From positions 1 to 64,000 of the IMG/VR virus record IMGVR_UViG_3300044557_000281: a stretch of 64,000 bases of DNA. One strand, given 5' to 3'. The notes beneath the pieces were generated by a model. That model saw nothing but the letters and a program-made list of their open reading frames with translations, was not told where the DNA came from and ran no database searches. A program made the position numbers and the translations under genes. This document shows, one piece after another, positions 1,869 through 54,720 of the stretch; the first letter of the stretch is position 1; every line of letters begins with the position of its first letter. The stretch is from a virus (lineage: Duplodnaviria > Caudoviricetes).

Positions 1869-4800
1869 TTAGTTGTATTGTGTGTATATGTCTGGTAAAG
1901 TAGGTGACATTGTTTCGTTTAACCATAGGTTGTTAAATTCATAACCAGCCCCATAGTTAACATCTACTAATCGTTCGTACCCTAGCATACTATAAACACA
2001 TGCTTGACCATACAACTAGAAGCATAATCTTGTTAAGAAGCTTCTAGCTAGACTATATCATCAATAATCATATTAGTCAATATAATTATTGGTACACGCT
2101 TCCCACCTTAGAGTTTCACTAAAGTAGTACAGATTTCATCAGCATAGCTACTAAGCCTTAGCTAGTATATCTTAGTCGTTAGACCTTCAAAGCATTTTCA
2201 TGCTAAGCTTGGCACAGGATTAGCATGAAAATGCTTTCCCTGTTAGCTTGCTTATTAACCATCATTTCTTATGGCTACTTAACCGTTAAACAAACACCCT
2301 ATAAGTATAGGTTCATGTACTTTATCGACCACTAATTTGTCAATGGTCGTCTCCTCTGCGTTTAATTATTTGATAAAATTCACCAGTTTTTTGGTCTTCT
2401 TCATCACGAATAACAATATTTCCCCAGTGTTCAATAAAGCGTTTTAATTCTTCATCAACTTCCCACCAGAAACCAATTTCTCCACCTTTCATCTTAGCAA
2501 TGTATCGTTTGTTTTGCATAAGTTTATCAGCAGAAACAATACTATTTTGCTCTGACCATGAAGGAATTAAATTACCAGTAGATTTAGGGGTGCTGGGATA
2601 TTTGCAACCGAATACTTTTTGTTTCCCATAATAAGCAATCAGTTGCGCAAGCTTTTCTCCACTATCCCCAATATCAGCCACAATAATATCCGGACTGTAG
2701 GGGGCTAGTTCTGCAATAATACTTTGTAAGTCAACCCCAATTGCTTTAGGGTCTACTATACTTGATTTACCAACAGAAAATAATCGAATCAAGTCTACTT
2801 GTCCATTGGTTCTTACACCGTGAACAGCACACCAATGACGATTTCCCCAATCGATACCCACCGAGATAAATTTATAATCTCCTCGGCTCATACGTTGTGT
2901 TGGTAAATCTTGTTTTCTGTGTTCTAATACGTCCTCTTGGTGAACACTTAATTTCTTATCTTCGTAGGGGTATCCAAGTGTGTAATTCCAAAACGCTTGC
3001 TTGGATAATGACGCTAGTTCTTTGCGTTTTAGGTCGTCAGCGGTACGGGCATACCGTAGTTTTCACTATACTTTAACACTGATTTAACAGTCGGACTAGA
3101 CTATATCATAAACCTACTTTTTGGTGTAGGTTTCCTTGCTTTACTTTCTCTTACGAGATTTTCTTATCTGGTTTTCACTAGTACCATTTTACTAGTTATC
3201 CAGAAATTTAGTCGTTAGGCTTTTATAGTGCATTGCACTGATTTAGCACGGGATTAACTCTGTCCATATAGGATTTAGTCTCTCTTATCAGCTTATTGGT
3301 TATTCAGCTATGCCCGTTTAACAAGGTTTACTCTCTTATCATTGCTAATAAGGTGGGCTATTACTTAACCCACACCGCGTTCATTTGGCTTATCATGTAC
3401 CCTCTTGTACCTTGACCACCTTTAGTACGGTCAGGGAATTTAGGAACCCCATTGTTAACTACCGCTACTTTCGTAGTATTTAATACGGATTGGACTATAT
3501 CATATTCTTATATTTTGGCATAAGAATCTCTACGTTACGCTATTGCTGTTGGCATTTTTTTGTAAAATCTTCGACTACTTCTAACACTTTATTTTACATT
3601 TGTAGTTTGTATGATACTCTGATAGCAGAGTAATTCTACCGCCATTTGCTTTTACAGCTTCTTCTCTGTAGCTTTCTGGTGTTTGTTTTATACCTTTCAT
3701 AATGTGTTCTCCTTAACTGTGCCAACAGTTCTAATAGCTTTCTCTTAGTTCTCACTAACCCCATTTGGTTAGCTACCCAAGAATTTAGTCTCTAGGCTTT
3801 TATAGCGCTTTGCGCTAGTTTAGCACGGTAGGTAAACTCTATCCTTGCATATTAGGACTTAGTCTTTCTTACCAGTATATTCTTTGTATATGCATTATTT
3901 TACTATGCCCGTTTAGTAGAGTTTAAGGTGTACAGGTCTGTTTATACACCGTTGTACCATCTGTCTAGTGGCTCTCCACACTTTTGGCAAACGAATTGGA
4001 AGGAACCATCTACGACAGTCTTAGCGAGTACGTCAACCCCTTTAGGGTTAACACAATAAATATTGCCACGTTTCTCAATTGGTGCTTCTGGATTATAATC
4101 CTCATAACTCATTTCGTTATAGTGATTACATTTAGGGCATTTGTGCATATACACAAATTGGTCGGATTGCTCAAACACACGGTGTATGCCCATGTGAGGG
4201 GTACTTGGTGTCGACCAACGGTTTATAATTTTGAATGGTGAACTTGACATGGATTCGATAGCAGACATTTCAGCAAAAGCTGGAACCCTATCATATTCGT
4301 CCCGAAAATACCGTAGTTTTCACTATACTTTAACACTGATTTAACAGTCGGACTAGACTATATCATAAACCTACTTTTTGGTGTAGGTTTCCTTGCTTTA
4401 CTTTCTCTTACGAGATTTTCTTATCTGGTTTTCACTAGTACCATTTTACTAGTTATCCAGAAATTTAGTCGTTAGGCTTTTACAGTGCGTTGCACTGATT
4501 TAGCACGGGATTAACTCTGTCCATATAGGATTTAGTCTCTCTTATCAGCTTATTGGTTATTCAGCTATGCCCGTTTAACAAGGTTTTCTATAGAAATTAC
4601 TTCCTATAGCCACTATAACTCAAAATGGCTAAATAGTCTATATCAATCTAAGAAACCCTCACTTTCGTGATATTTAATAGGGACTAGACTATATCATACC
4701 CCTCCTATTCGGTGGAGGGGTCTCTCCGTTACTTCCTACAAAACTTTAGTTAATCTTATATTTTTGCTCTTTATTTAAAACAATTCCTTGTACTGCCATT

Positions 4801-7371
4801 TTTAGCTCGTTATTTAAAACATAATAAGGTATACGATACAAATCTGTAGACAGTGTTTGGAAAAACTTATTGGTTTGGTCATCCTTCTGTTTTACTTTAG
4901 TTAGATAATCCATACCACCCCAAAGCTCCGTAGGTTCATAGTGCTGTCTACCATCGTACTCAATGACAATATCAAGCTCTGGTAAATAGAAGTCTAATCT
5001 ACGGACACCTACGTTAGGTATGTCAAACGTTTTTTCTTGCTCGTACTTTACACCTAGTTCATCAAGCATATAGGCAATCATTTCTTCCCCACCGCTCTCC
5101 TTACAATGTTTACAACCGTAACCACGCATAAACGCATTGTATTGAACATCCAGTTTGTTCCCACACTTTTCATGAGTAATATTAACAAACATATGATGGT
5201 TTTTCATATACACTTTGTTTAAAGTAAAGTTAGGTCTATTTTCTCTCATATAGTCTAGAACATCTTCCTCAGTGTGTCGGTAGATATTTGAGCAGTACTG
5301 ACAACCGGATGTTCCTGTTTTTACAATCCGAGATAAATTTTGTAGGGACGTGTGTACAGTTTTTCCACAAGGGATATGGATAAAATCAGTAGAATACTTT
5401 ATTAACTCAGGGTACTCTACAATTTCAAATGTCTTATCAAGACCAAGTTCTTTAAATCGCTTATCAAACTTGTCTTTAACACTTGCTCTATGTCGAGCAC
5501 GTTTATCTTCTTCCATACACATTTGACATGGTATCTTTTGAGCGCCAATAGAGTGTGGTATCTTATTAAATCGGTACCCACAAGTTAAACATTCAAAGTC
5601 GGCATGAGTTCGAGCATTCACATATTCAGAAACTAATCTGACATGTTTACGCTCCATTGTTTTAATAAAAGATTCTGGTATTTTTTTCATAGTAATAGTT
5701 TGTGTAGGTTTTCTTATCTAGTTCTCACTAATCCCATTTGATTAGCTACCTAGAAATTTAGTCGTTACACTTTCCTCCTTAATTTGATAAATTAACTATA
5801 ACATAAATATTATTTAGTGTCAATACCTATGTAGTCAATTGTTTTAAAGAGGTTTAGCACGGGATTAACACTATCCTAAAACTAGGACTTAGTCTCTCTT
5901 ATCAGCTTATTGGTTATTCAGCTATGCCCGTTTAGAAGAGTTTTTCGACACTAATCACTTAGTGAAGGGGCATTGTAAGTCTACCCTCTACTGCGCCCGG
6001 TTTAGAACTAGAACGAAAATATAAATAACTATCACGTATTTTCTTTGCTTTCAATGAATCTAGTTCTGGGTCGGCTATTGTCTTGTAGTACCCTTTTTCT
6101 AATAACGGATTTAGCCGTGTTTGTACGAACTTCAACATCTGCTCGTTGGTAGGAAATGTATAAAGTGCTTTAACTGCACTGTGACTGTACGTGTCTACAA
6201 AGTGTAATAACTTTCCTACACCAATTTCACTTAACCCGAGCTGACGCGACTTAATTACGGCTAAATTCTTGTGTGTGTCATTTAATACTTGTACTTGCCC
6301 ATTGAGTGTACCCTCGGTTTCCCGATATTTATTAGGGGACTAGACTATATCATCAACCTATCTTTTGGTTTAGGTTGCTCTACGTTACTTTCTCTTACGA
6401 GATTTTCTTATCTAGTTCTCACTAATCCCATTTGATTAGTTACCTAGAAATTTAGTCGTTAGAGTTTCAAATAAGAACAGTTAGTTATATTTATATGTTT
6501 AATAGCAGAACTCCCAACCTTTATAACTTTGTTGCTTTCCTGACAGGCATCTCCTTATACCATTTCTATCTAGTTGAGTGTCTCTTGCACACTCGTTTTG
6601 ACTTAGGTATGTTTTCCTAACACCTGTTGGGGAAGTAGCAGTGAACTTAGTCATATGGCTAGGCTGATATTTATTATTGACTTCCTTAGATATCCATATG
6701 CAGGTTTCGGTGGAATACTTTTTAGCCCCTTTAATGTCTTTGTCTAGTTGAAGCTCTCCTGCGTAGAACCTACTCTCATCCCAACCGTCAATATCACTAA
6801 TGTCTTCTAAGGAATAGTCGAAGCAGTGCCACCTAGCGTCTATGGTAACATCTTTGTAAGCATTAGCTCGAATATGCTTGGCATCATAACACCGCTTTAG
6901 CATACCTTGCCAGACACTAAAAGCTCTGCTATCAGTTCTGTAATTTGTCTCTATAAAATAACCCTTATTATAATAGCTAATGTTAAACACCCCCTTATTA
7001 GCTATTATATCATTTAACTATGGTTTTGTTAAGTACTGCTCTTATTTGTTTACTACGGTAGGTTAACTCTGTCCTTGCATATTAGGATTTAGTCTTTCTT
7101 ACCAGTATATTCTTTGTATATGCATTATTTTACTATGCCCGTTTAGTAGAGTTTATAGACCACAGCATTTTTATGGTCGGTGACTTTGCCGCTTAGTTTG
7201 GTCACGGTCGGAAATAACAAAGGTAATCGGGTGATTACGTATGGTGTGATTTCTCAACAAGTACGTGGAAGTTTGGGTCATATCTAGCAAGTAGCTAAGC
7301 TGTTCAGTTGAAATTCTTTCGGTACCGAACATTTGCCTAGACATACCAGCTAAGTGATTTCCATCTACCAT
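1869..7371 (-). CDS. terL: Terminase large subunit, 7 exons: 7371-7173, 6299-5983, 4647-4625, 4302-3944, 3449-3368, 3045-2343, 2012-1869
   Basis: Exons sum to 1827 nt (608 aa + stop). Join restores RPWQ, KSRQLGLSE, Walker B IDIDYLAMDE, STP, GIDWG and GDDHYGQA, collinear with recalled phage K-type TerL. Confidence 0.93.
2013..2342 (-). ncRNA. Group I intron terL-I6 (330 nt, no ORF)
   Basis: P1 CGACCAU/GUGGUCG; terminal G at 2013 before TAT GGT CAA. Confidence 0.9.
3046..3367 (-). ncRNA. Group I intron terL-I5 (322 nt, no ORF)
   Basis: P1 GUGGGU/GCCCAC; terminal G at 3046; core near-identical to I3. Confidence 0.9.
3450..3943 (-). ncRNA. Group I intron terL-I4 (494 nt, endonuclease remnant)
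   Basis: P1 GGUGUAU/GUACACC; P10 GGGUU; terminal G at 3450. Confidence 0.9.
3581..3700 (-). pseudogene. 39-codon remnant of an intron endonuclease
   Basis: RBS AGGAG + MKGIKQTPESYREEAVKANGGRITLLSEYHTNYKCKIKC*; resembles the N-terminus of the I2 ORF. Confidence 0.55.
4303..4624 (-). ncRNA. Group I intron terL-I3 (322 nt, no ORF)
   Basis: P1 UAGCCAU/GUGGCUA; terminal G; core near-identical to I5. Confidence 0.9.
4648..5982 (-). ncRNA. Group I intron terL-I2 (carries endonuclease ORF)
   Basis: P1 GGGU/GCCC; P7 core; terminal G at 4648 before ATT GAT ATA GAC. Confidence 0.88.
4746..5690 (-). CDS. Intron-encoded Vsr/DUF559-like homing endonuclease with Zn-ribbon repeats
   Basis: CxxC repeats; C-terminal RLDFYLP..IVIEYDGRQHY. 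Confidence 0.78.
   Translation of the reverse strand: MKKIPESFIKTMERKHVRLVSEYVNARTHADFECLTCGYRFNKIPHSIGAQKIPCQMCMEEDKRARHRASVKDKFDKRFKELGLDKTFEIVEYPELIKYSTDFIHIPCGKTVHTSLQNLSRIVKTGTSGCQYCSNIYRHTEEDVLDYMRENRPNFTLNKVYMKNHHMFVNITHEKCGNKLDVQYNAFMRGYGCKHCKESGGEEMIAYMLDELGVKYEQEKTFDIPNVGVRRLDFYLPELDIVIEYDGRQHYEPTELWGGMDYLTKVKQKDDQTNKFFQTLSTDLYRIPYYVLNNELKMAVQGIVLNKEQKYKIN
6300..7172 (-). ncRNA. Group I intron terL-I1 (carries HNH ORF)
   Basis: P1 ACCAU/GUGGU with U-G pair at the splice site; P7 GACUA/UAGUC; terminal G; P10 with GGCA. Confidence 0.9.
6499..6990 (-). CDS. Intron-encoded HNH-type homing endonuclease with C-terminal NUMOD1-like domain
   Basis: WQGMLKRCY, LDKD..YS.ETC.WI...NN, SQNECAR...CLSGK; lies inside terL-I1. 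Confidence 0.8.
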   Translation of the reverse strand: MFNISYYNKGYFIETNYRTDSRAFSVWQGMLKRCYDAKHIRANAYKDVTIDARWHCFDYSLEDISDIDGWDESRFYAGELQLDKDIKGAKKYSTETCIWISKEVNNKYQPSHMTKFTATSPTGVRKTYLSQNECARDTQLDRNGIRRCLSGKQQSYKGWEFCY

Positions 7372-7374
7372 AAT

Positions 7375-7800
7375 TTAAAACGTCCCTTCATTCTGTTGGT
7401 TCATTACTTTTTCTTTTTCGGTTAACATGGCATGAACTTCTTTGTCTGTAAGACTAGCCAAGTCTGCTAAATCAACCAGTTCCTTATCTTCTTCCCCATC
7501 ATTCACAATTTCTGTGGGTAGATAATCAGAAATAACATTACGCTCACCGGGAGACAAAGCTGGCAATGTACCAGTACCCTCACCAGATAGGCTATTAATA
7601 TTATTTATGTCCGTATATATTTGAAACAGCCGGCTTAAATCGGTTACTGAATCAACCTTAACCGCACCGGTAGACACATCTTGCATAAATGTATCAATCA
7701 GTTTTAAGGAAGCGTTGTTAAAAGTATCTCTTAACTTTTCTTCCGAAGACTTCGATTCCTCCTTTTTAACATTTCTTCTAATGTTATCTGAAATAGACAA
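7375..7800 (-). CDS. Putative terminase small subunit / conserved protein upstream of terL
   Basis: RBS AGGAGG then TTG at 7800; position matches the ~136-aa gene preceding terL in K-like phages (recalled). Confidence 0.5.
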   Translation of the reverse strand: MSISDNIRRNVKKEESKSSEEKLRDTFNNASLKLIDTFMQDVSTGAVKVDSVTDLSRLFQIYTDINNINSLSGEGTGTLPALSPGERNVISDYLPTEIVNDGEEDKELVDLADLASLTDKEVHAMLTEKEKVMNQQNEGTF

Positions 7801-7802
7801 GT

Positions 7803-8129
7803 TTATCCTCCTCCTTGCTTGTGTTGAGCATAACAACTTTTAGAATCTTTGCATAAACTCAACGATAAATTTTTACCTAAAGATAACACATAATGGTCTC
7901 TAATGGATTTAGTCTCATACTTATTGTAAGGGATTCCACCTTTAGAGAACCCTTGGACAACTCGTGTTTCTGTTAGTGGTCGTTGACAGACCACACATAC
8001 CCTTGTGCCTTCTGTAATGCGCTTATCGCCTTTTTTAACGATACGTTTAGTCACAGATTTCTTTAACAAGTAAGCTCGTTCTTTACGAATCGTTTCCTTG
8101 TCTTTCTGCTTAATCGGGACGTGTTTCAA
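7803..8129 (-). CDS. Hypothetical basic protein with CxxC
   Basis: 108-aa ORF co-oriented with the terL operon. Confidence 0.6.
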   Translation of the reverse strand: MKHVPIKQKDKETIRKERAYLLKKSVTKRIVKKGDKRITEGTRVCVVCQRPLTETRVVQGFSKGGIPYNKYETKSIRDHYVLSLGKNLSLSLCKDSKSCYAQHKQGGG

Positions 8130-9771: not shown

Positions 9772-9844
9772 GCCGAATTAGTTCAGTTGGTAGAACGCTT
9801 GATTTGTAACCAAGAGGTCGGAGGTTCAACCCCTTCATTCGGCA
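9772..9844 (+). tRNA. tRNA-Thr(UGU)
   Basis: GCCGAAT/ATTCGGC acceptor; D-loop AGTTGGTA; loop TTTGTAA; TTCAA T-loop. Confidence 0.85.
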
Positions 9845-9849
9845 TTCAC

Positions 9850-9941
9850 ACTTCTTTAGCTTAATGGTAAAGCACCCGGTTTATGCCCGGCATATGTCCC
9901 CAGATTAGGGAGTAATGTAGGTTCAAGTCCTACAAGAAGTA
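9850..9941 (+). tRNA. tRNA with UAU (Ile) anticodon and long variable arm
   Basis: ACTTCTT/AAGAAGT acceptor; CCGG-TTTATGC-CCGG anticodon arm; TCCC-n-GGGA variable hairpin; GTAGG-TTCAAGT-CCTAC. Confidence 0.6.
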
Positions 9942-10020
9942 TAGTAAGCACGGCTGTAAGGCGCTGTATCAGTGCTCGAGCTAGAAAGGCTATCCAACCT
10001 AAATCTAGTGCTTACTAACT

Positions 10021-10092
10021 ATTACTATAGCTTAACGGATAAAGCAATCGCCTTCTAAGCGATAAATCTGTGTTCAATTCACAGTAGTAATG
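10021..10092 (+). tRNA. tRNA-Arg(UCU)
   Basis: ATTACTA/TAGTAAT acceptor; ATCGC-CTTCTAA-GCGAT. Confidence 0.85.
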
Positions 10093-10902: not shown

Positions 10903-11370
10903 ATGCTAAACATGATTGTGGCTGTAGACACAGCCGGTGCTATTGGATATAAAAATGAGTTATTGTTCCATTCAAAAGAAGATATGCAACACTTTAAACG
11001 AACTACACTAAATCGTACAGTCGTAATGGGAGTGAATACGGCAAAGTCATTGCCTAAATTCCCCTTACCAAAAAGAAAAAATATAGTATATGGTAGAAAG
11101 CCTGTAGAAGGCGCTTATGCAGAGTACGCCATGTATAAAGAAGATATTATTAAATTAGCTAAAAAGGAAGAAGTTTATATTATAGGGGGCGGACAAACGT
11201 ATCGTGCCTTTATGAAGTATGCGGACGGCTTAATTGTAACCATATTCAAAGATAAAGCAGAACAAGCAGATACTTATTTTCCGGAAATAGACCATTCCTT
11301 ATTCAAATGGATAGATACATTACCACTGAAAGATAACAAAGGAGAGATTCATACTTTTATCAGGAGATGA
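10903..11370 (+). CDS. dfrA: Dihydrofolate reductase
   Basis: MIVAVD..GAIG..NEL; DMQHFKRTT..RTVVMG; LPKRKNIV; IIGGGQTY; ADTYFP. Confidence 0.92.
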   Translation: MLNMIVAVDTAGAIGYKNELLFHSKEDMQHFKRTTLNRTVVMGVNTAKSLPKFPLPKRKNIVYGRKPVEGAYAEYAMYKEDIIKLAKKEEVYIIGGGQTYRAFMKYADGLIVTIFKDKAEQADTYFPEIDHSLFKWIDTLPLKDNKGEIHTFIRR

Positions 11371-13595: not shown

Positions 13596-13734
13596 GCACT
13601 TCTCCGAAATGAGACTAAACTATTAAATAACTAATTTAAGGTGGGCGCCTAAAAAAAATAATGAAACTTTTTGGATAATCTTTTTTCTAGTTGCAACGTC
13701 CACCTTTTATTAAATATAGAGTTAGAAAGAAGTT

Positions 13735-16700
13735 TTGTATTTGACAACAGCAACAACAGCATTAGCTACTAAGGTGGCTAAAAGAGATGGTCGGACTGTT
13801 AAGTTTACAAACAACCGTATCAAAAAATCTATTAGAAAAGCTTGTTTTGATGTTTCTTTAGGGGATAAAGAAACTAAGGAATTAGTAGAACGGGTAACAG
13901 AAACGCTTACCCCTCATATTAGCCAAAGACAAGAAATTTCAGTAGAAACCATTGAAGATTTAGTGGTAGAACAGTTAGAAGTGCTTGGTGCAAAAGATGT
14001 AGCAGAATCTTATCGTGTGTATCGTATGCAACGAACTATTGAAAGAGAACAACAAACAGATGTTACTCATGCAATAGGGAAATTAATTGCTAGGGATAAA
14101 ACGGTAATCAATGAAAATGCCAACAAGGACGCTAACACTATTCCGGCTAACCGTGATTTAACAGCAGGCGTAGTAGCAAAAGCAGAGGGGCTTAAAATGT
14201 TACCAAAACGTGTAGCGAATGCTCATTTAAAAGGGGATATTCACTTCCATGATTTAACCAACAGCCCTTATGATGTTAGTACCAATTGTTGCTTAATTGA
14301 TTTTAAGACCATGTTATCTAACGGGTTTAAGATGGGCAATGCTCAAATTGAATCACCAAAATCTATACAAACTGCCACAACAGTAGCTTCGCAAATTATT
14401 GCCAATGTAGCCAGTCAACAATTTGGTTAGGACACTTGCCGTTTTCATAGGTAACTATGATTATTATTACCGAGGTAACAACAGGAAGGCTGTAAAATGC
14501 TAACCCGAAGGGAAGGTTAAAAATAACATTTTAACCACATGCAACGCATAGATTTTGAAACTGGTTTAACCAGAATATAGTAAATCCAAGAGACCACGGC
14601 ACCCTAGATAATAGGGTGAAAAGATATGCTAAACTGGGTATGAAAGAACATACCAATGAAAATGAAGGAAACTTCCAGAGCTATAGATAATAACCTATAG
14701 GATAATAACAATTTGGGGTGCTCATTTGACCGCATAGACGAGGTGCTAGCCCCGTATGCAGAAATGAACTACAAAAAGCATTTAAGTGAAGCTAAGCAAT
14801 ATGTATTTCCAGAAATGCAAGAACAGTACGCAAAGAACAAAACTAAGAAAGATATTTATGACGCTTTCCAAAGTCTTGAGTGAGCATTCACGCCCAAGTA
14901 AAACTTATCTAAACAGGGAAACTCTTAATAAGACAATCCTGTACAAAGTATATTTTTTAATATATGCGTGCAACGACTATCGAAAACAGAAACTAATATT
15001 ACAGGTATTAGTGGAGAAGTGAGTAGAGTACAATTCAAGTGAATTGGAAAAGGTGAGGTTCTGTAAGTAACGATACAGAATATGATATAGTCTGAACTAT
15101 ATGGTGACATATAGAAGGTACAATCTAACGAATTGTATCGTAACATAATGATGAAGTAAATACTTTGTATACCGCTAACGGTTAAGTTTGGCTGTTATAA
15201 AACTATGTGAACCTATATTTGTAGGGTGTTTACTTAACGGTTAAGGAACTATAGGAAATGATAGTTAGTAAGTAAACTAACAGGGGAAGCTAAGGCAGTA
15301 GCTATGCTAATCCTGTGCTAAGCCTTAATAAAGGAAAGTGCAACGACTATCGAAAGCAGAAATCAATAAGAAAATTATTGGTAGGTAAGTGAGTAGAGTA
15401 CAGATTAAGTGTGAATCTTAACTGGAAGCGCATAGAGAATGAAATGAGTGAATCAAAACTAATTTGAACTTGTTTTGTTTTAAGATATAGTCTGGATTTA
15501 TGGAAACATAAAGAGGTGCTACAAACACCGTTTACCACGATTGCCGGTTTCTTAGGCACTAACTGGTTCGAGAGAGAAATACAAAAAGCAATTCTTAATG
15601 TTAGATTAGTTGGACTTGGAGCTGACAAAAAGACAGCAATATTCCCTAAGATACTGTTCACCCTTAAAAAAGGTGTAAACTTTTCAGCAGAAGACCCTAA
15701 CTATGATATTAAGCAATTAGCAATGAAATGTTCACAAGCAAGAATTTACCCTAAGCAACGTTGGGGCTTTATTAAGTAATTAATAAGTGATAATGTGGTG
15801 AACCTAGTTAAAGGGTGTCCTTAATAAGGGCTAACGGGCATAGCTGAATAACCAATAGGCTGATAAGAGAACCTAAGTCCTACATGGATAGTGGCAATCC
15901 CGTGCCAAGACTACTAATAAACATACATTTAATTTTAAACATAGGGAGTTGATTACACATGGAAAAAGATGAGTTATTACAGCTAGCAATAGACGGGTAC
16001 CTCAAGGAGGTAGAAACTATTACTTACATTGAATGCCCTGTCTGTCATGCAAAACTTACCTATAAATGGAAAAGTTCCCTACGCAATATTAAAAGTATAC
16101 ATGGAGCTAACTGCAGCAAATACTACCAGAACCAAGTAACTAAGGAGTTAGGCGAGCAAGCTTGTAAGAAATTCTCAAGCACATACCGTCATGCAAAAGA
16201 ACGTTGTACAAATAAAAACTCTAAAGATTATTACTGTTATAAAGGGAAGTGGGGATTTACTGATTATGTAGATTATCACTTTTGTTGCTATAGCAGTTTT
16301 AGGGACGCTTGGTTACGGAAAATAGAAAATATTTCTATTGATAGGATAGACGGGAATTTAGGCTATGAAAAGGATAATGTTAGGTTTATATCTATGGGGG
16401 ATAATTTAAGAAACAAGGATAGAATAAAACCAGTTATGGCTTTAAACATAGAAACTAATGAATGTCTTACAGCTAACAGTTTAGCTTCTCTTGTAAATAG
16501 TAATAGTACCACTTTTAAGTCGTTAAGTGCTATGCACCACCATCTTAAGAACGGTGGATTATACAAGAAAAAATGGAAAGTGGTTTATCAGTAGTAAGGT
16601 GTATCGACTAAATTGTGCATATGCACTAAGACCTACGAGATTAACACGTAGGGTAGCGCCACACACCCAAGAAATATTGGGTGATGATATAGTCAGGTTA

Positions 16701-18030
16701 AGTAGAAATGCTTAAAGAATAACGGACGTATTAAATTATGATAAACTTGTGGAAATTACTGGCTCATATAAAGCCAGCATGGGTTGCAGAAGTTTTTTAA
16801 ACAAATGGGTCAATGAACATGGAGAAGAAGTTCATGCTGGTCGTATGAATTTGGGTGTTATTTCATTAAACACACCAAGAATTGGGATTGAATCAGAAGG
16901 AAATGTTGAAACTTTCTGGGAACTTTTCAATGAACGATTAGACATTGTTCATGAGGGGCTACAATTCCGAATTAAACGTTGTAAGGAAGCGCAACCTAAG
17001 AATGCACCAATGCTTTATAAACAAGGTGCATTCGGTCATTACCTTACAGATGAGGATACAGTAGACCAACTGTTCGACAATGAACGAGCTACCGTTTCTA
17101 TCGGCTATATTGGCTTATATGAAACAATGACAGCTTTGTTCGGTAATCCTAATTGGGAAACCAATAAAGATATTTATGCTTTTTCTATCGAAGTAGTGAG
17201 ACGTATTGCTGAAAAAGCTGAAAAATGGTCTAAAGAAGAAGAAATCCATTATTCATTGTATGCCACACCAAGTGAATCAATGACTGACCGGTTCTGTAGA
17301 TTAGATACCGCTAAGTTCGGTATTATCAAAGACATTACAGACAAAGGTTTTTATGTGAACTCATTCCATTTAGACACACGAAAAGATTGGTCTCCAATGG
17401 ATAAGATTGATTTTGAATCACCTTACCCTAAATACTCTAATGGTGGGTTTATTCACTATGTAGAAGCAGTTATTCCTAAGCACAATCTGAAAGCTATGGA
17501 ACAACTTTGGGACTACTCGTACGACAAACTAGGATATTTTGGTGTTAATACGCCAATAGATAAATGTTTGAAATGTGGTTTCGAGGGAGACTTTCACGCT
17601 ACCGAGGACGGCTACGAATGTCCAGAGTGTGGGAATAATGACCCAGAAACCTGTGATGTTGTAAAACGACTTTGTGGGTTAACTTAAAGGCTCACATTAA
17701 ACTGTATAAATTGACGGGGACTACCTTAGAGCTTTTACTACTAACTTACTGTGGTGACACAGGCAAGGGCTAGCATAATTAACTAGGTATAGTAAAAAAG
17801 TAAAAGATTGGTAAATCCGCAACGAAACTTCACTACCGTCACATGTTAGTGAAGGACGCTCAACGACTATAATTACGGATGAGGTTAGTCAAACCTCATA
17901 AGGTATAGTCTACTCCCCTAATAAATATCGGGAAACCGAGGGTACTAAGGATTTAGGACAACCACAATTACGCCCCGAAGTTAAGGGAAGACGTAAAGAA
18001 ATAATGAGTCGGGTTAAACACCAACAATAA
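13735..18030 (+). CDS. nrdD: Anaerobic ribonucleotide reductase, 6 exons: 13735-14427, 14716-14881, 15151-15182, 15522-15752, 16725-17679, 17951-18030
   Basis: Exons sum to 2157 nt (718 aa + stop); ATP cone, HFHD, NCC, QFGGCS, EYEVNT..NGQTPF, YPDV, MGCRS, CxxC..CxxC, RLCGYLG. Confidence 0.9.
14428..14715 (+). ncRNA. Group I intron nrdD-N1 (288 nt)
   Basis: P1 UGGU/GCCG; P10 GGGUG/CACUU; terminal G. Confidence 0.85.
14882..15150 (+). ncRNA. Group I intron nrdD-N2 (269 nt)
   Basis: P1 CUUGAGU/GCCCAAG; P7 GACUA/UAGUC; terminal G. Confidence 0.88.
15183..15521 (+). ncRNA. Group I intron nrdD-N3 (~339 nt; 3' end atypical)
   Basis: P1 UAACGGU/GCUGUUA; P7 core; P10 CAAAC/GUUUG places the 3' junction after A15521. 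Confidence 0.75.
15753..16724 (+). ncRNA. Group I intron nrdD-N4 (carries HNH ORF)
   Basis: P1 CCCU/GGGG; P10 GACGU/ACGUU; terminal G at 16724. Confidence 0.88.
15959..16594 (+). CDS. Intron-encoded HNH homing endonuclease
   Basis: SIDRIDGNLGYEKDNVRFI...N; C-terminal NUMOD-like segment. Confidence 0.8.
   Translation: MEKDELLQLAIDGYLKEVETITYIECPVCHAKLTYKWKSSLRNIKSIHGANCSKYYQNQVTKELGEQACKKFSSTYRHAKERCTNKNSKDYYCYKGKWGFTDYVDYHFCCYSSFRDAWLRKIENISIDRIDGNLGYEKDNVRFISMGDNLRNKDRIKPVMALNIETNECLTANSLASLVNSNSTTFKSLSAMHHHLKNGGLYKKKWKVVYQ
17680..17950 (+). ncRNA. Group I intron nrdD-N5 (271 nt), splits the Tyr codon of RLCGYLG
   Basis: P1 UGUGGGU/GCUCACA; terminal G at 17950. Confidence 0.9.
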
Positions 18031-18108
18031 CACTTTACAATACCCTTGTGATTTGGTATAATGTCTATATCAAGTCACAAGGGTTATTTATTATAAGGAG
18101 GAATTTAC

Positions 18109-21640: not shown

Positions 21641-23220
21641 GATTTTACGCCAGGAAACTCGGTATTTTAATGCCGAGAGGAATGGCGTCCTTTCTATAAT
21701 TTAGTGTAATTTAGTATTGACAAAATGCTCGATTTCTGCTATAATAGAAGTATCTTAAGTAGAAAGGGGCCCTTATGGAATCTGCAATTTCTTTAAAATT
21801 TAGACTATATCCAACACCAGAACAAAGCCGAGCCTTTTCAGACCTTTGTCAACGTTATGCCAACGCCTGTAATTTTGCAAGTCAATATGCCTTTGACAAC
21901 GGAATGATTACTTCAGTCATTGACTTAAACAGAGGCATATACTTAAACCTTCGTCAAAAGTTTAACCTTAAAGCTCAGTTAGCACAGTCTGTTTCACGTA
22001 CAGTTACTGCACGATATAAAACAATACGTAAACAAATGCAAAAGAATCCTTATGTTTGCAAGTACGAAGTGATACCTAAGAATCTTGATAAAACAAAGTC
22101 TAAAAATAAAAAGTTTAAAACAGTATACGTTAGTCGAAATTTAGACTGGTTACAAAAACCTGTACAATTCAATCGTCCACAAGCGGATTTAGTAAGAAAC
22201 CGTGACTATAGTTTTGTAGAAAATTGCACTAAACTGTCAATTAATACATTAAACAAACGTGTAAAAGTAGATTTTAGTATTAAAGGTTTTGAACATTACC
22301 TTGACGATTATAAACTTGGTACAGCTAAGTTGGTTAAGTCTAATGGAAAATGGTTCTTGCATGTAGGCGCAACAAAAACCGTTGAAGACTTACCCGACGT
22401 TAAACACGTTGTGGGTATTGACCGTGGTTTACGCCAATTGATGGTCACCTATGATGAAGATGGACAGACCGCCTTTTATTCTGGACAAACCGCACGTCGT
22501 AAACGTGACCATTATTCAGCCTTAAGGGCTTCTCTGCAAAGACGTAATACCAAATCTTCCAGACGACGCTTGCGTCGTCTCGGTAACAAAGAGAACCGCT
22601 GGATGACAGATTATAATCATCAGTTATCAAAGACACTTTGTTCAAAATATGAAAATGATACGGTATTTGTTCTTGAAGACTTAAGTGGCGTTCAGTTCGC
22701 TGCAGACAACCAGTCGAAGCAACGTAAGTCTGATAATCATACCTGGGCATTCTATCAATTGGGACAGTTTCTTGCTTATAAAGCAATTCAAAATCGTTCT
22801 ATGATATTGAAAGTAGACCCGGCATACACCAGTCAACGTTGTCCTAAATGCGAACGTATTGACAAAGAACAACGCGACCATAAGTTACATGAGTACCGTT
22901 GTGAATGTGGATACGTAAGTAACGATGACCGTTTGGCTGCAATGAACATTCAAATTTTAGGGCAGTACATTCTTGCACATCCAGAATTTAAAACACGGCC
23001 TTCGTATAAAACATTAACAGGCTTGGCATAAATGTCAACCTTATTGCCGGTGCAATCAACCACCGGGTCTAAGCAGCGGCTTAATACGCTATGACTTAGA
23101 TGAGTAGCATCCTCGCATTAAACATTGATTAAGCCAAGGTTTAAGGTGTTAGAAGTGACTTCGTCATGCTTGACTAACATTTGAGTTGCAAACTCGGTAC
23201 TTTAGTGCCGAGTAGTTGAT
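21641..23220 (+). mobile_element. IS200/IS605-family tnpB-only element
   Basis: Subterminal hairpins CTCGGTATTTTAATGCCGAG (left) and CTCGGTACTTTAGTGCCGAG (right); TGAT at the junctions. Confidence 0.8.
21775..23031 (+). CDS. tnpB: RNA-guided nuclease TnpB
   Basis: RLYPTPEQ; RuvC GIDRG, VLEDL, NDDRLAA; CPKC/CECG Zn finger. Confidence 0.9.
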   Translation: MESAISLKFRLYPTPEQSRAFSDLCQRYANACNFASQYAFDNGMITSVIDLNRGIYLNLRQKFNLKAQLAQSVSRTVTARYKTIRKQMQKNPYVCKYEVIPKNLDKTKSKNKKFKTVYVSRNLDWLQKPVQFNRPQADLVRNRDYSFVENCTKLSINTLNKRVKVDFSIKGFEHYLDDYKLGTAKLVKSNGKWFLHVGATKTVEDLPDVKHVVGIDRGLRQLMVTYDEDGQTAFYSGQTARRKRDHYSALRASLQRRNTKSSRRRLRRLGNKENRWMTDYNHQLSKTLCSKYENDTVFVLEDLSGVQFAADNQSKQRKSDNHTWAFYQLGQFLAYKAIQNRSMILKVDPAYTSQRCPKCERIDKEQRDHKLHEYRCECGYVSNDDRLAAMNIQILGQYILAHPEFKTRPSYKTLTGLA

Positions 23221-53832: not shown

Positions 53833-54720
53833 TTAGAATAGTTGTAAAGTATTGTTAATAGCAGAAGCCATCATATCTACTGTATTGTCTAACCAACACA
53901 CAGCCGTATGCTGTTTTCCTTTAGCACTAGGCGTAAGTAATTTGCCATATGCCACAGCACTCACTTCACCGTAGGCGCGAATAGTGAACATATCCTGTTT
54001 TCCCGAATGACTTCCAAGGAATACAACACCGCTCTCATTATCAGCTTGCTTCATAGAGGTCATTAACAGATGAGCCAACTCATTGTTGTACCGTTCATTG
54101 TACGTCACACCCACTAAGACTTTTGAATTAGTGTGGAAATAGCTTACACGGTTAGGTTTATTAGCTAAGTCCATACAATAGTCATAGACTTGTTTCCCCC
54201 GTGAGTGTATTAAGTAGTTTAATGTACTGAATGGTGAGGCTTCATTGTTTGCTAAAACACTCCACCAATGAACACTGTTTTCTTCTAATGAGTAGTGTAG
54301 CCCTACAGCAGAAACAAATAATGGGTCTTCTGTCTTGTACGCATGGTACATTTGAATAAGGTTAAGAAATAACTCCATCCTTTTCTGGCTGTTATAATCA
54401 AAGTGAAAGAAGTTTCTTTGGTTTAACCACTCATATAGTAAGACTGTTGGGGATAGTCTTTCATGGTAGAGGTCTTGGTAATTAGTTGGTGGTCTGGTTT
54501 TAGATTCCTCACCATATGACCCTACCCGTAATATTTGCTTGGCGTACTCTACTTGGTTCCATTCCGTTTTGTCAAAATAAGAGTTCCCAGTAATGACTAT
54601 ATCTTCTGTCCCTATTAAGCTAGTGCTCTCTAGTGGTAACACAGGAACTTCGGTATAGTTTGCAATAATAGTTAGCTCTTTTGTTAGCGTGGCTTTTGTT
54701 TGTTTAATATAGATGGTCAT
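53833..54720 (-). CDS. DHH/DHHA1-like phosphoesterase-fold protein (degenerate)
   Basis: C-terminal FTIR..SAV.YG..AKGK; likely start MTIYIKQ at 54720. Confidence 0.5.
   Translation of the reverse strand: MTIYIKQTKATLTKELTIIANYTEVPVLPLESTSLIGTEDIVITGNSYFDKTEWNQVEYAKQILRVGSYGEESKTRPPTNYQDLYHERLSPTVLLYEWLNQRNFFHFDYNSQKRMELFLNLIQMYHAYKTEDPLFVSAVGLHYSLEENSVHWWSVLANNEASPFSTLNYLIHSRGKQVYDYCMDLANKPNRVSYFHTNSKVLVGVTYNERYNNELAHLLMTSMKQADNESGVVFLGSHSGKQDMFTIRAYGEVSAVAYGKLLTPSAKGKQHTAVCWLDNTVDMMASAINNTLQLF

Follow-up and report, generated by a model that had tools for sequence, protein, structure and literature searches.

Six group I introns predicted in the terminase large subunit gene of a phage resembling the Enterococcus Herelleviridae

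Group I introns in a terminase large subunit gene (terL) have been described in SIOphi, a Bacillus phage of the Bastillevirinae, whose TerL transcripts were found to splice themselves in vitro (Weglewska et al. 2025, PMC11878797); in that subfamily terL carries two or three introns at most (PMC11878797). The classic several-intron gene of the same family, the Herelleviridae, is orf142 of phage Twort, a tail tube gene rather than terL, which contains three group I introns and undergoes exon skipping as a side effect (Landthaler & Shub 1999, as cited in PMC11878797). In two unrelated groups, the zeta crAss-like and the Jug phages, essential genes encoding the major capsid protein (MCP), TerL, NrdD and polymerases are split by many group I introns, with loads of up to 14 per genome, or 18.5 on average; the terL of Jug phages is found in two or three fragments and the MCP gene of zeta crAss-like phages in five (PMC7886860, PMC12880540). 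The terL of phage MarsHill could not be reconstructed (Korn et al., bioRxiv version). In these papers no terL has more than three introns, and no single phage gene more than four interruptions. Here we describe the terL locus of IMG/VR virus record IMGVR_UViG_3300044557_000281 (Duplodnaviria; Caudoviricetes), of which positions 1 to 64,000, a stretch of 64,000 nucleotides (nt) called the window below, were analysed. On the minus strand of the window, from position 7371 to position 1869, terL consists of seven exons and six introns (I1 to I6, in the order of transcription): seven fragments of a single gene, where the published genes of zeta crAss-like and Jug phages have two to five.

For the exon map, the probe was the TerL of 611 amino acids (aa) that Enterococcus phage EFDG1 makes from an uninterrupted gene (L001:3017-4852). 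Searched with tblastn, it aligned in six collinear blocks on the minus strand, running from 7356 to 1875 and covering EFDG1 residues 7-67, 69-173, 182-300, 302-328, 329-563 and 564-610. Residues 174-181 are absent from these blocks and are encoded by a micro-exon of 23 nt (4647-4625) lying between two introns. Exon borders were read from the junction sequences, and the exons were joined by a script. The seven exons together form a frame of 1827 nt with a single terminal stop and none inside; the first-pass annotation of this DNA had predicted a TerL of 608 aa on joining, and this is the length obtained. An end-to-end alignment to a Herelleviridae TerL, proposed there as a check, pairs residues 4-607 of the spliced product with residues 5-610 of the EFDG1 protein at 71% identity over 604 residues, with two gaps. 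The estimate that introns make up about two thirds of the locus was equally accurate (3676 of 5503 nt, or 66.8%). At all six junctions joining restores conserved peptides without insertion or deletion: HRPW/QV, VEG/IDID, YLAM/DEYD, NGVW/VPKF, AVWV/TADD and GDDH/YGQA. The contig, 90,155 bases long, has one copy of terL.

All seven exons lie on the minus strand. Exon 1 (7173..7371, 199 nt; EFDG1 residues 7-67 by tblastn) ends within a UGG Trp codon, after its U, at the junction HRPW/QV. Exon 2 (5983..6299, 317 nt) matches residues 69-173 at 76% identity and includes the Walker A-like motif SRQLGLS. Exon 3 is the micro-exon (4625..4647), assigned from the junction sequences and from peptide continuity; it encodes IDIDYLA of the Walker B strand and ends two bases into a Met codon. 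Its first 4 nt form the P10 helix of I2 and its last 7 nt the P1 helix of I3. Exon 4 (3944..4302, 359 nt) covers residues 182-300 at 80% identity and exon 5 (3368..3449, 82 nt) residues 302-328 at 85%. Exon 6 (2343..3045, 703 nt) encodes the nuclease domain; it aligns to residues 329-563 at 68% identity and matches the terminase large subunit family phrog_675 (E 2.9e-83). Exon 7 (1869..2012, 144 nt including the stop codon) completes the protein with residues 564-610. Exons 2 and 4 match PF05876 (GpA_ATPase), so that ATPase and nuclease parts of the family follow one another in the proper order.

The intervening sequences have the splice-site features of group I introns. The first-pass annotation had claimed a U-G pair in P1 and a terminal G at every junction, and both are there in six cases out of six. 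The last base of each 5' exon is a U, paired to a G within a P1 helix of 4-7 base pairs (bp) that involves the first 10-18 nt of the intron. From I1 to I6 the helices are GACCAU/GUGGUC, GGGU/GCCC, UAGCCAU/GUGGCUA, GGUGUAU/GUACACC, GUGGGU/GCCCAC and CGACCAU/GUGGUCG. The terminal G (omega-G) falls in every intron at a junction that had been set independently by protein alignment. A P10 helix of 4-5 bp adjoins P1 in I1, I2 and I4.

The catalytic core can be followed through all six introns. Each of them has one copy of the J8/7-P7 motif GATATAGTC close to its 3' end, and in the whole window this motif is found 11 times against 0.47 expected. When the six introns were aligned after excision of two long open reading frames (ORFs), a common architecture emerged, made up of P1, an optional P2, P3, P4-P5, P6, P7 (GACUA/UAGUC), P7.1/P7.2, P8 and a GAAA-capped 3' hairpin. 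The P7.1/P7.2 extension is a sign of an IA-like layout, and for this reason we call the layout IA-like; five of the introns appear to form one such family with P7.1/P7.2, and I6 to belong to another. P3 has changed on both sides, reading CUCUAC/GUAGAG in I1 and I4, CUCUUC/GGAGAG in I2 and CCUUGU/GCAAGG in I3 and I5; P6 shows compensatory changes as well, and P8 exists in the variants AACCUA/UAGGUU, CCCCUCC/GGAGGGG, AACCUAC/GUAGGUU and UUCUUAU/AUAAGAA. An RNAalifold consensus for the 3' domains of 24 terL introns, from the window and its relatives, comprises P8 and the GNRA hairpin, with changes on both sides in 11 of 11 pairs. The minimum-free-energy fold of I3 recovers P2 to P9 (z = -4.9), and the fold of I6 has the same z value. 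In Rfam searches, in which matches within the locus were taken at an E-value threshold, I3 (41.9 bits, E 2.8e-8), I5 (37.4 bits, E 5.9e-7) and I6 (32.7 bits, E 1.5e-5) align with the full group I model RF00028 (positions 1-253) at sub-threshold scores, and I1, I2 and I4 align only in part, as their cores are interrupted by ORFs or long inserts. I3 and I5 are also about 75-76% identical over some 290-300 nt, almost the whole of each, to intron 2 of SIOphi terL (76% over 292 nt for I3). The claim that six group I introns interrupt this terL is thus supported by exon mapping, splice-site rules, a shared core that covaries, homologues at the same sites in relatives and a related family known to self-splice.

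Three of the introns carry, or once carried, an endonuclease gene in a peripheral loop of the ribozyme. I1 (6300..7172, minus strand, 873 nt) is inserted at EFDG1 residue 68, ends in ...CAAUG and has its partial RF00028 match at 6321-6458. Within its P6 loop, closed by a stem of 14 bp, lies an ORF of 163 aa (6499..6990, minus strand) that resembles homing endonucleases of the HNH family (phrog_2081, 'HNH endonuclease', E 7.9e-44) and has a C-terminal domain similar to the NUMOD of I-HmuI (PF22083, E 2.3e-8); no HNH motif recognisable by Pfam was found in it. Kinship of this ORF with the endonuclease at the same site in phage KEN04 was considered and rejected, as the two have no similarity; related introns here carry different families of endonuclease. 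The 3' domain of I1 is 94-95% identical to terL introns of phage iF6 and of the metagenome contig L003, to which we return below. I2 (4648..5982, minus strand, 1335 nt, residue 173) has a P2 with a GUGA loop, a P10 of the sequence AUUG/CAAU and a partial RF00028 match at 4668-4813; its P7.2 loop accommodates a homing endonuclease gene of 314 aa (4746..5690, minus strand; phrog_559, E 6e-50), of a type annotated 'VSR endonuclease' in iF6, and over 311 aa the product shares 46% identity with the endonuclease of the L003 intron at site 173. I4 (3450..3943, minus strand, 494 nt) interrupts a UGG codon at residue 301, with GGGUU/GACCU as P10 and a partial RF00028 match at 3476-3568. It is 84-85% identical to the L003 intron at site 301 save for a deletion of about 600 nt, and the ORF of 39 aa in its P7.2 loop (3581..3700, minus strand) shares 87% identity with residues 23-60 of the endonuclease (276 aa) encoded in that intron. 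Judged from these alignments, the short ORF is the deletion remnant of an endonuclease gene.

The other three introns, all on the minus strand, have no ORF: I3 (4303..4624, 322 nt), inserted at residue 181, with the Walker B Asp-Glu directly after it; I5 (3046..3367, 322 nt), inserted at residue 328, whose core is a near-copy of that of I3; and I6 (2013..2342, 330 nt), inserted at residue 563 after GDDH, which is of another sequence family than I1-I5 and shares 71% identity with its L003 counterpart at site 563, itself a 49.5-bit match to RF00028. I3 and I5 differ at 28 of their first 38 positions, a stretch made up of the P1 guide and P2. Outside it they differ only at two P6 positions and at three close to the 3' end. 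The same ribozyme core thus serves two splice sites 1257 nt apart. Since reverse splicing would have carried the P1 guide and P2 along, the two cores were probably made identical by recombination between two distinct introns. Exchange of modules is also suggested by I1 and I4, which have a 5' module of 108 nt in common (95% identity) and both follow the U of a UGG Trp codon.

By its terS-terL region, the virus resembles the Enterococcus Herelleviridae of the subfamily Brockvirinae. The terminase small subunit gene, terS (7375..7836, minus strand; phrog_1063, E 1.1e-38), lies directly upstream of terL, the order being that of EFDG1. The Brockvirinae phages EFP01, iF6, KEN04, phiM1EF22 and EF24C are the closest by TerL, at 68-80% identity per exon, and have homologous introns: KEN04 and phiM1EF22 share site 68, and the aligned 3' terminus of I1 closely matches the KEN04 intron at that site. 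They differ in having one to three terL introns each, and their sites 90, 117, 213, 352 and 396 are empty in the window. A scan of IMG/VR for close relatives with exon 6 returned no match; in the protein collection the exon-6 ORF is a singleton, its next relative being 68% identical, and that collection contains no sister genome from which the junctions could be fixed by intron presence and absence.

When the EFDG1 protein was mapped onto the terL loci of 15 other phages and contigs, at least 11 insertion sites became apparent across the family, at EFDG1 residues ~68, 90, 117, 173, 181, 213, 301, 328, 352, 396 and 563. The terL of the window uses sites 68, 173, 181, 301, 328 and 563. Five of these six are occupied in other Herelleviridae: site 68 (I1) in KEN04, phiM1EF22, SEP1 and MR003; site 173 (I2) in L003; site 181 (I3) in CIFT_MRSA32 and the contig L017; site 301 (I4) in L003, L005, L006 and L017; and site 563 (I6) in L003 and L017. 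All five are empty in EFDG1, and intron-less alleles exist in other members as well. Site 328, the position of I5, was unoccupied in all 15 comparators. The 240-aa protein P0010 was considered as a sign of a second phage with an intron there and was rejected, its contig (L017) reading straight through. The introns of SIOphi agree with those of the window in family, gene and IA-type structure, and often in carrying endonuclease ORFs in loops, but they number three, at residues ~90, 305 and 395, and only the region ~301-305 is common to both sets; the window has, in addition, a 23-nt exon between two introns. Because of the resemblance to the motifs of T4 gp17, we place the insertion sites at conserved motifs: the Walker B strand lies between I2 and I3, the latter standing just before its Asp-Glu, and I6 follows GDDH in the nuclease domain.

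For the first-pass annotation, a terL with six introns was without known precedent. This holds for curated phage records, where terL falls into four tblastn pieces, or three introns, at most among the matches listed (120 of some 800 records), but fails for public metagenomes. In L003, a Schiekvirus-like contig (Logan SRR29354200_1772) whose TerL is 97-100% identical to that of EFDG1, terL likewise aligns in seven collinear pieces and so has six introns, with RF00028 matches of up to 67.7 bits. Sites 173, 301 and 563 are common to both loci, where the L003 introns are homologous to I2, I4 and I6, as is the endonuclease; the remaining sites are 91, 117 and 213 in L003 as against 68, 181 and 328 in the window, and L003 has kept more full-length endonuclease genes, so that its locus reaches about 7.5 kb. 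L003 is a public assembly for which we found no published description. A contig from a second sample, L004, recovers the 3' half of the same terL with its last three introns; together the two contigs indicate that such intron loads exist in assembled genomes. Six introns are therefore the top of the range in print, yet not unique in public data. Further along L003 (9803-11081), a second copy of the final 18 terL codons lies about 1.2 kb downstream (11028-11081), separated from the gene by an ORF of 353 aa with faint helix-turn-helix matches; terL may have received a further insertion at its 3' end.

Taken together, these observations make it very probable that we are dealing with the single terL of a Herelleviridae phage related to the Brockvirinae that has been colonised by six group I introns, through selfish accumulation by homing and through recombination, and not with a designed regulatory circuit. 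The terS-terL transcript would carry six ribozymes, each with a U.G pair at its 5' splice site, a P3-P9 core and a terminal G. According to established group I chemistry, an external guanosine would attack after the U, and the freed 5' exon would then attack after the terminal G. All six reactions would have to succeed on one transcript, including the correct use of the 23-nt exon, which would engage both the P10 of I2 and the P1 of I3; removal of the six introns would restore an intact TerL of 608 aa. The introns would have arrived by endonuclease-driven homing from co-infecting relatives, entering the most conserved stretches of terL, and efficient self-splicing would keep them tolerable. 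The endonuclease genes would then have decayed, leaving two intact (I1, I2), one as a remnant (I4) and none in I3, I5 and I6, while recombination among the introns of the locus would account for their mosaic modules and for the near-identity of the I3 and I5 cores. As such, this terL is an extreme case of a well-known phenomenon, not a new element or mechanism.

Several points weigh against this interpretation. Splicing at all six introns is deduced from sequence. The P1 of I2 is short, 4 bp followed by a mismatch. The expectation of a plausible P10 at every junction stands for I1, I2 and I4 only: in I3, I5 and I6 the best candidates have 2-3 bp and do no better than shuffled exons. P10 is not needed in every group I intron. 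The comparison with Rfam, recommended in the first-pass annotation, likewise gave a divided answer, with full-length matches for three introns and partial ones for the others, none of which reaches the RF00028 gathering score of 50 bits anywhere in the terL locus. If the contig is a metagenome assembly, it could merge a population polymorphic for intron presence and so show more introns than any single genome. Finally, the introns may confer a secondary benefit, which would be compatible with selfish accumulation.

On a first alternative, which we consider unlikely, occupancy might have been selected as protection and weapon at once in competition between phages, since an occupied site is destroyed as a target for the endonucleases of rivals, and the two intact endonucleases would cut intron-less terL genes. 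Interference competition mediated by an intron endonuclease has indeed been shown for jumbo phages in co-infection (PMC11620839), and, in relatives with endonuclease genes there, five of the six sites are known targets. The arrangement of promoter-like sequences also fits. The two strongest sigma70-like matches of the coding strand, which agree at 11 of 12 positions and both include a TG, stand just ahead of the intron ORFs: TTAACA-17-TATAAT at 7032-7004 (minus strand) in I1, and TTGACA-17-TATAGT at 5823-5795 (minus strand), in the P6 loop of I2, ahead of its endonuclease gene. They may be intron-internal promoters of the endonuclease genes. Promoter-like sites in the region are, however, not enriched (26 against 22.8 expected), and only the position of the best two is suggestive. 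Three introns have no endonuclease at all, and the ORF of I1 is without the recognisable HNH motif. Moreover, the proposal is a fitness argument placed on top of the same mechanism.

A bolder version holds that the six-fold occupancy as a whole has been selected, the introns blocking the endonuclease sites of competitors, the two intact endonucleases attacking intron-less rivals and the supply of TerL being tied, by the need for six correct splicing events and for the use of a 23-nt exon, to the conditions of ribozyme folding, so that terL would act as a module of immunity, weapon and timing. We find this even harder to accept than protection and attack by themselves.

Its last component can also be taken alone. 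The introns might be kept to regulate packaging, six ribozymes having to fold and react before TerL is made, which would impose a delay or a metabolic checkpoint sensitive to GTP and Mg2+; the idea of a timing or checkpoint device goes back to the first-pass annotation. Weglewska et al. (PMC11878797) have proposed that introns are 'molecular on-switches', and in the present gene skipping of the 23-nt exon 3 would shift the frame, so that the fidelity of splicing would limit the output of TerL. Yet in EFDG1 and other close relatives the gene for the same protein has no interruption, the number of introns among relatives varies from zero to six, and site occupancy is the only pattern to be discerned. 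What is found, namely endonuclease ORFs, a remnant of one and homing sites in common with relatives, bears the mark of selfish spread, and we see no sequence feature specific to regulation. A regulatory purpose therefore seems very improbable.

Least probable of all is a dead gene in a defective genome, with introns that no longer splice, or a chimeric 'pan-intron' assembly of several strains: the sub-threshold Rfam scores, the short P1 of I2, the three introns without P10, the near-identical repeat of 282 nt in I3 and I5, of a kind that confuses assemblers, and the lack of a close relative in the protein collection or IMG/VR for a cross-check might be read in this way, but the seven exons are intact, ordered, in phase, free of frameshifts and conserved in their motifs, which would be unexpected in a decaying gene, the contig has a single terL, and an independent contig, L003, also has six introns, its 3' half being found again in L004.

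Sequences akin to the terL introns are present elsewhere in the window. A second intron cluster occupies positions 13700-18050 of the plus strand, with RF00028 matches at 14856-15114 (50.9 bits), 15209-15513 (55.1 bits), 16534-16715 (29.7 bits) and 17648-17933 (37.4 bits) and with GATATAGTC at 15084, 15484 and 16686. Modules of 76-124 nt are common to introns of this cluster and to I2, I3, I5 and I6, at 78-87% identity. Two further copies of the motif, at 21803-21811 and at 54595-54603 (minus strand), were not counted as introns; they are situated inside long open frames with no Rfam match and may be due to chance. Beyond the window, the genome (C1) has two more copies, at 66865 and 80627 (minus strand). 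Directly downstream of the terL stop codon (1869) is a G+C-rich hairpin of 10 bp (1840-1865), called as terminator-like on the plus strand, which may terminate the terS-terL transcript, acting in either direction. Three tRNA genes are located at 9772-10092 on the plus strand, and the one at 9850-9941 has a long insertion in its variable region.

The terL of the window is among the densest intron loads found for one phage gene. Gene callers fragment it and miss its exons of 23 and 82 nt, so annotation, like any phylogeny of this phage based on TerL, requires the exact exon map. Stages of the homing cycle are seen side by side within this one gene, from intact endonuclease genes through a deletion remnant to introns without ORFs, together with two introns that have identical cores. 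The locus thus offers a natural system for studying how introns spread and recombine within a single gene, and what heavy intron loads cost the phage or bring to it.

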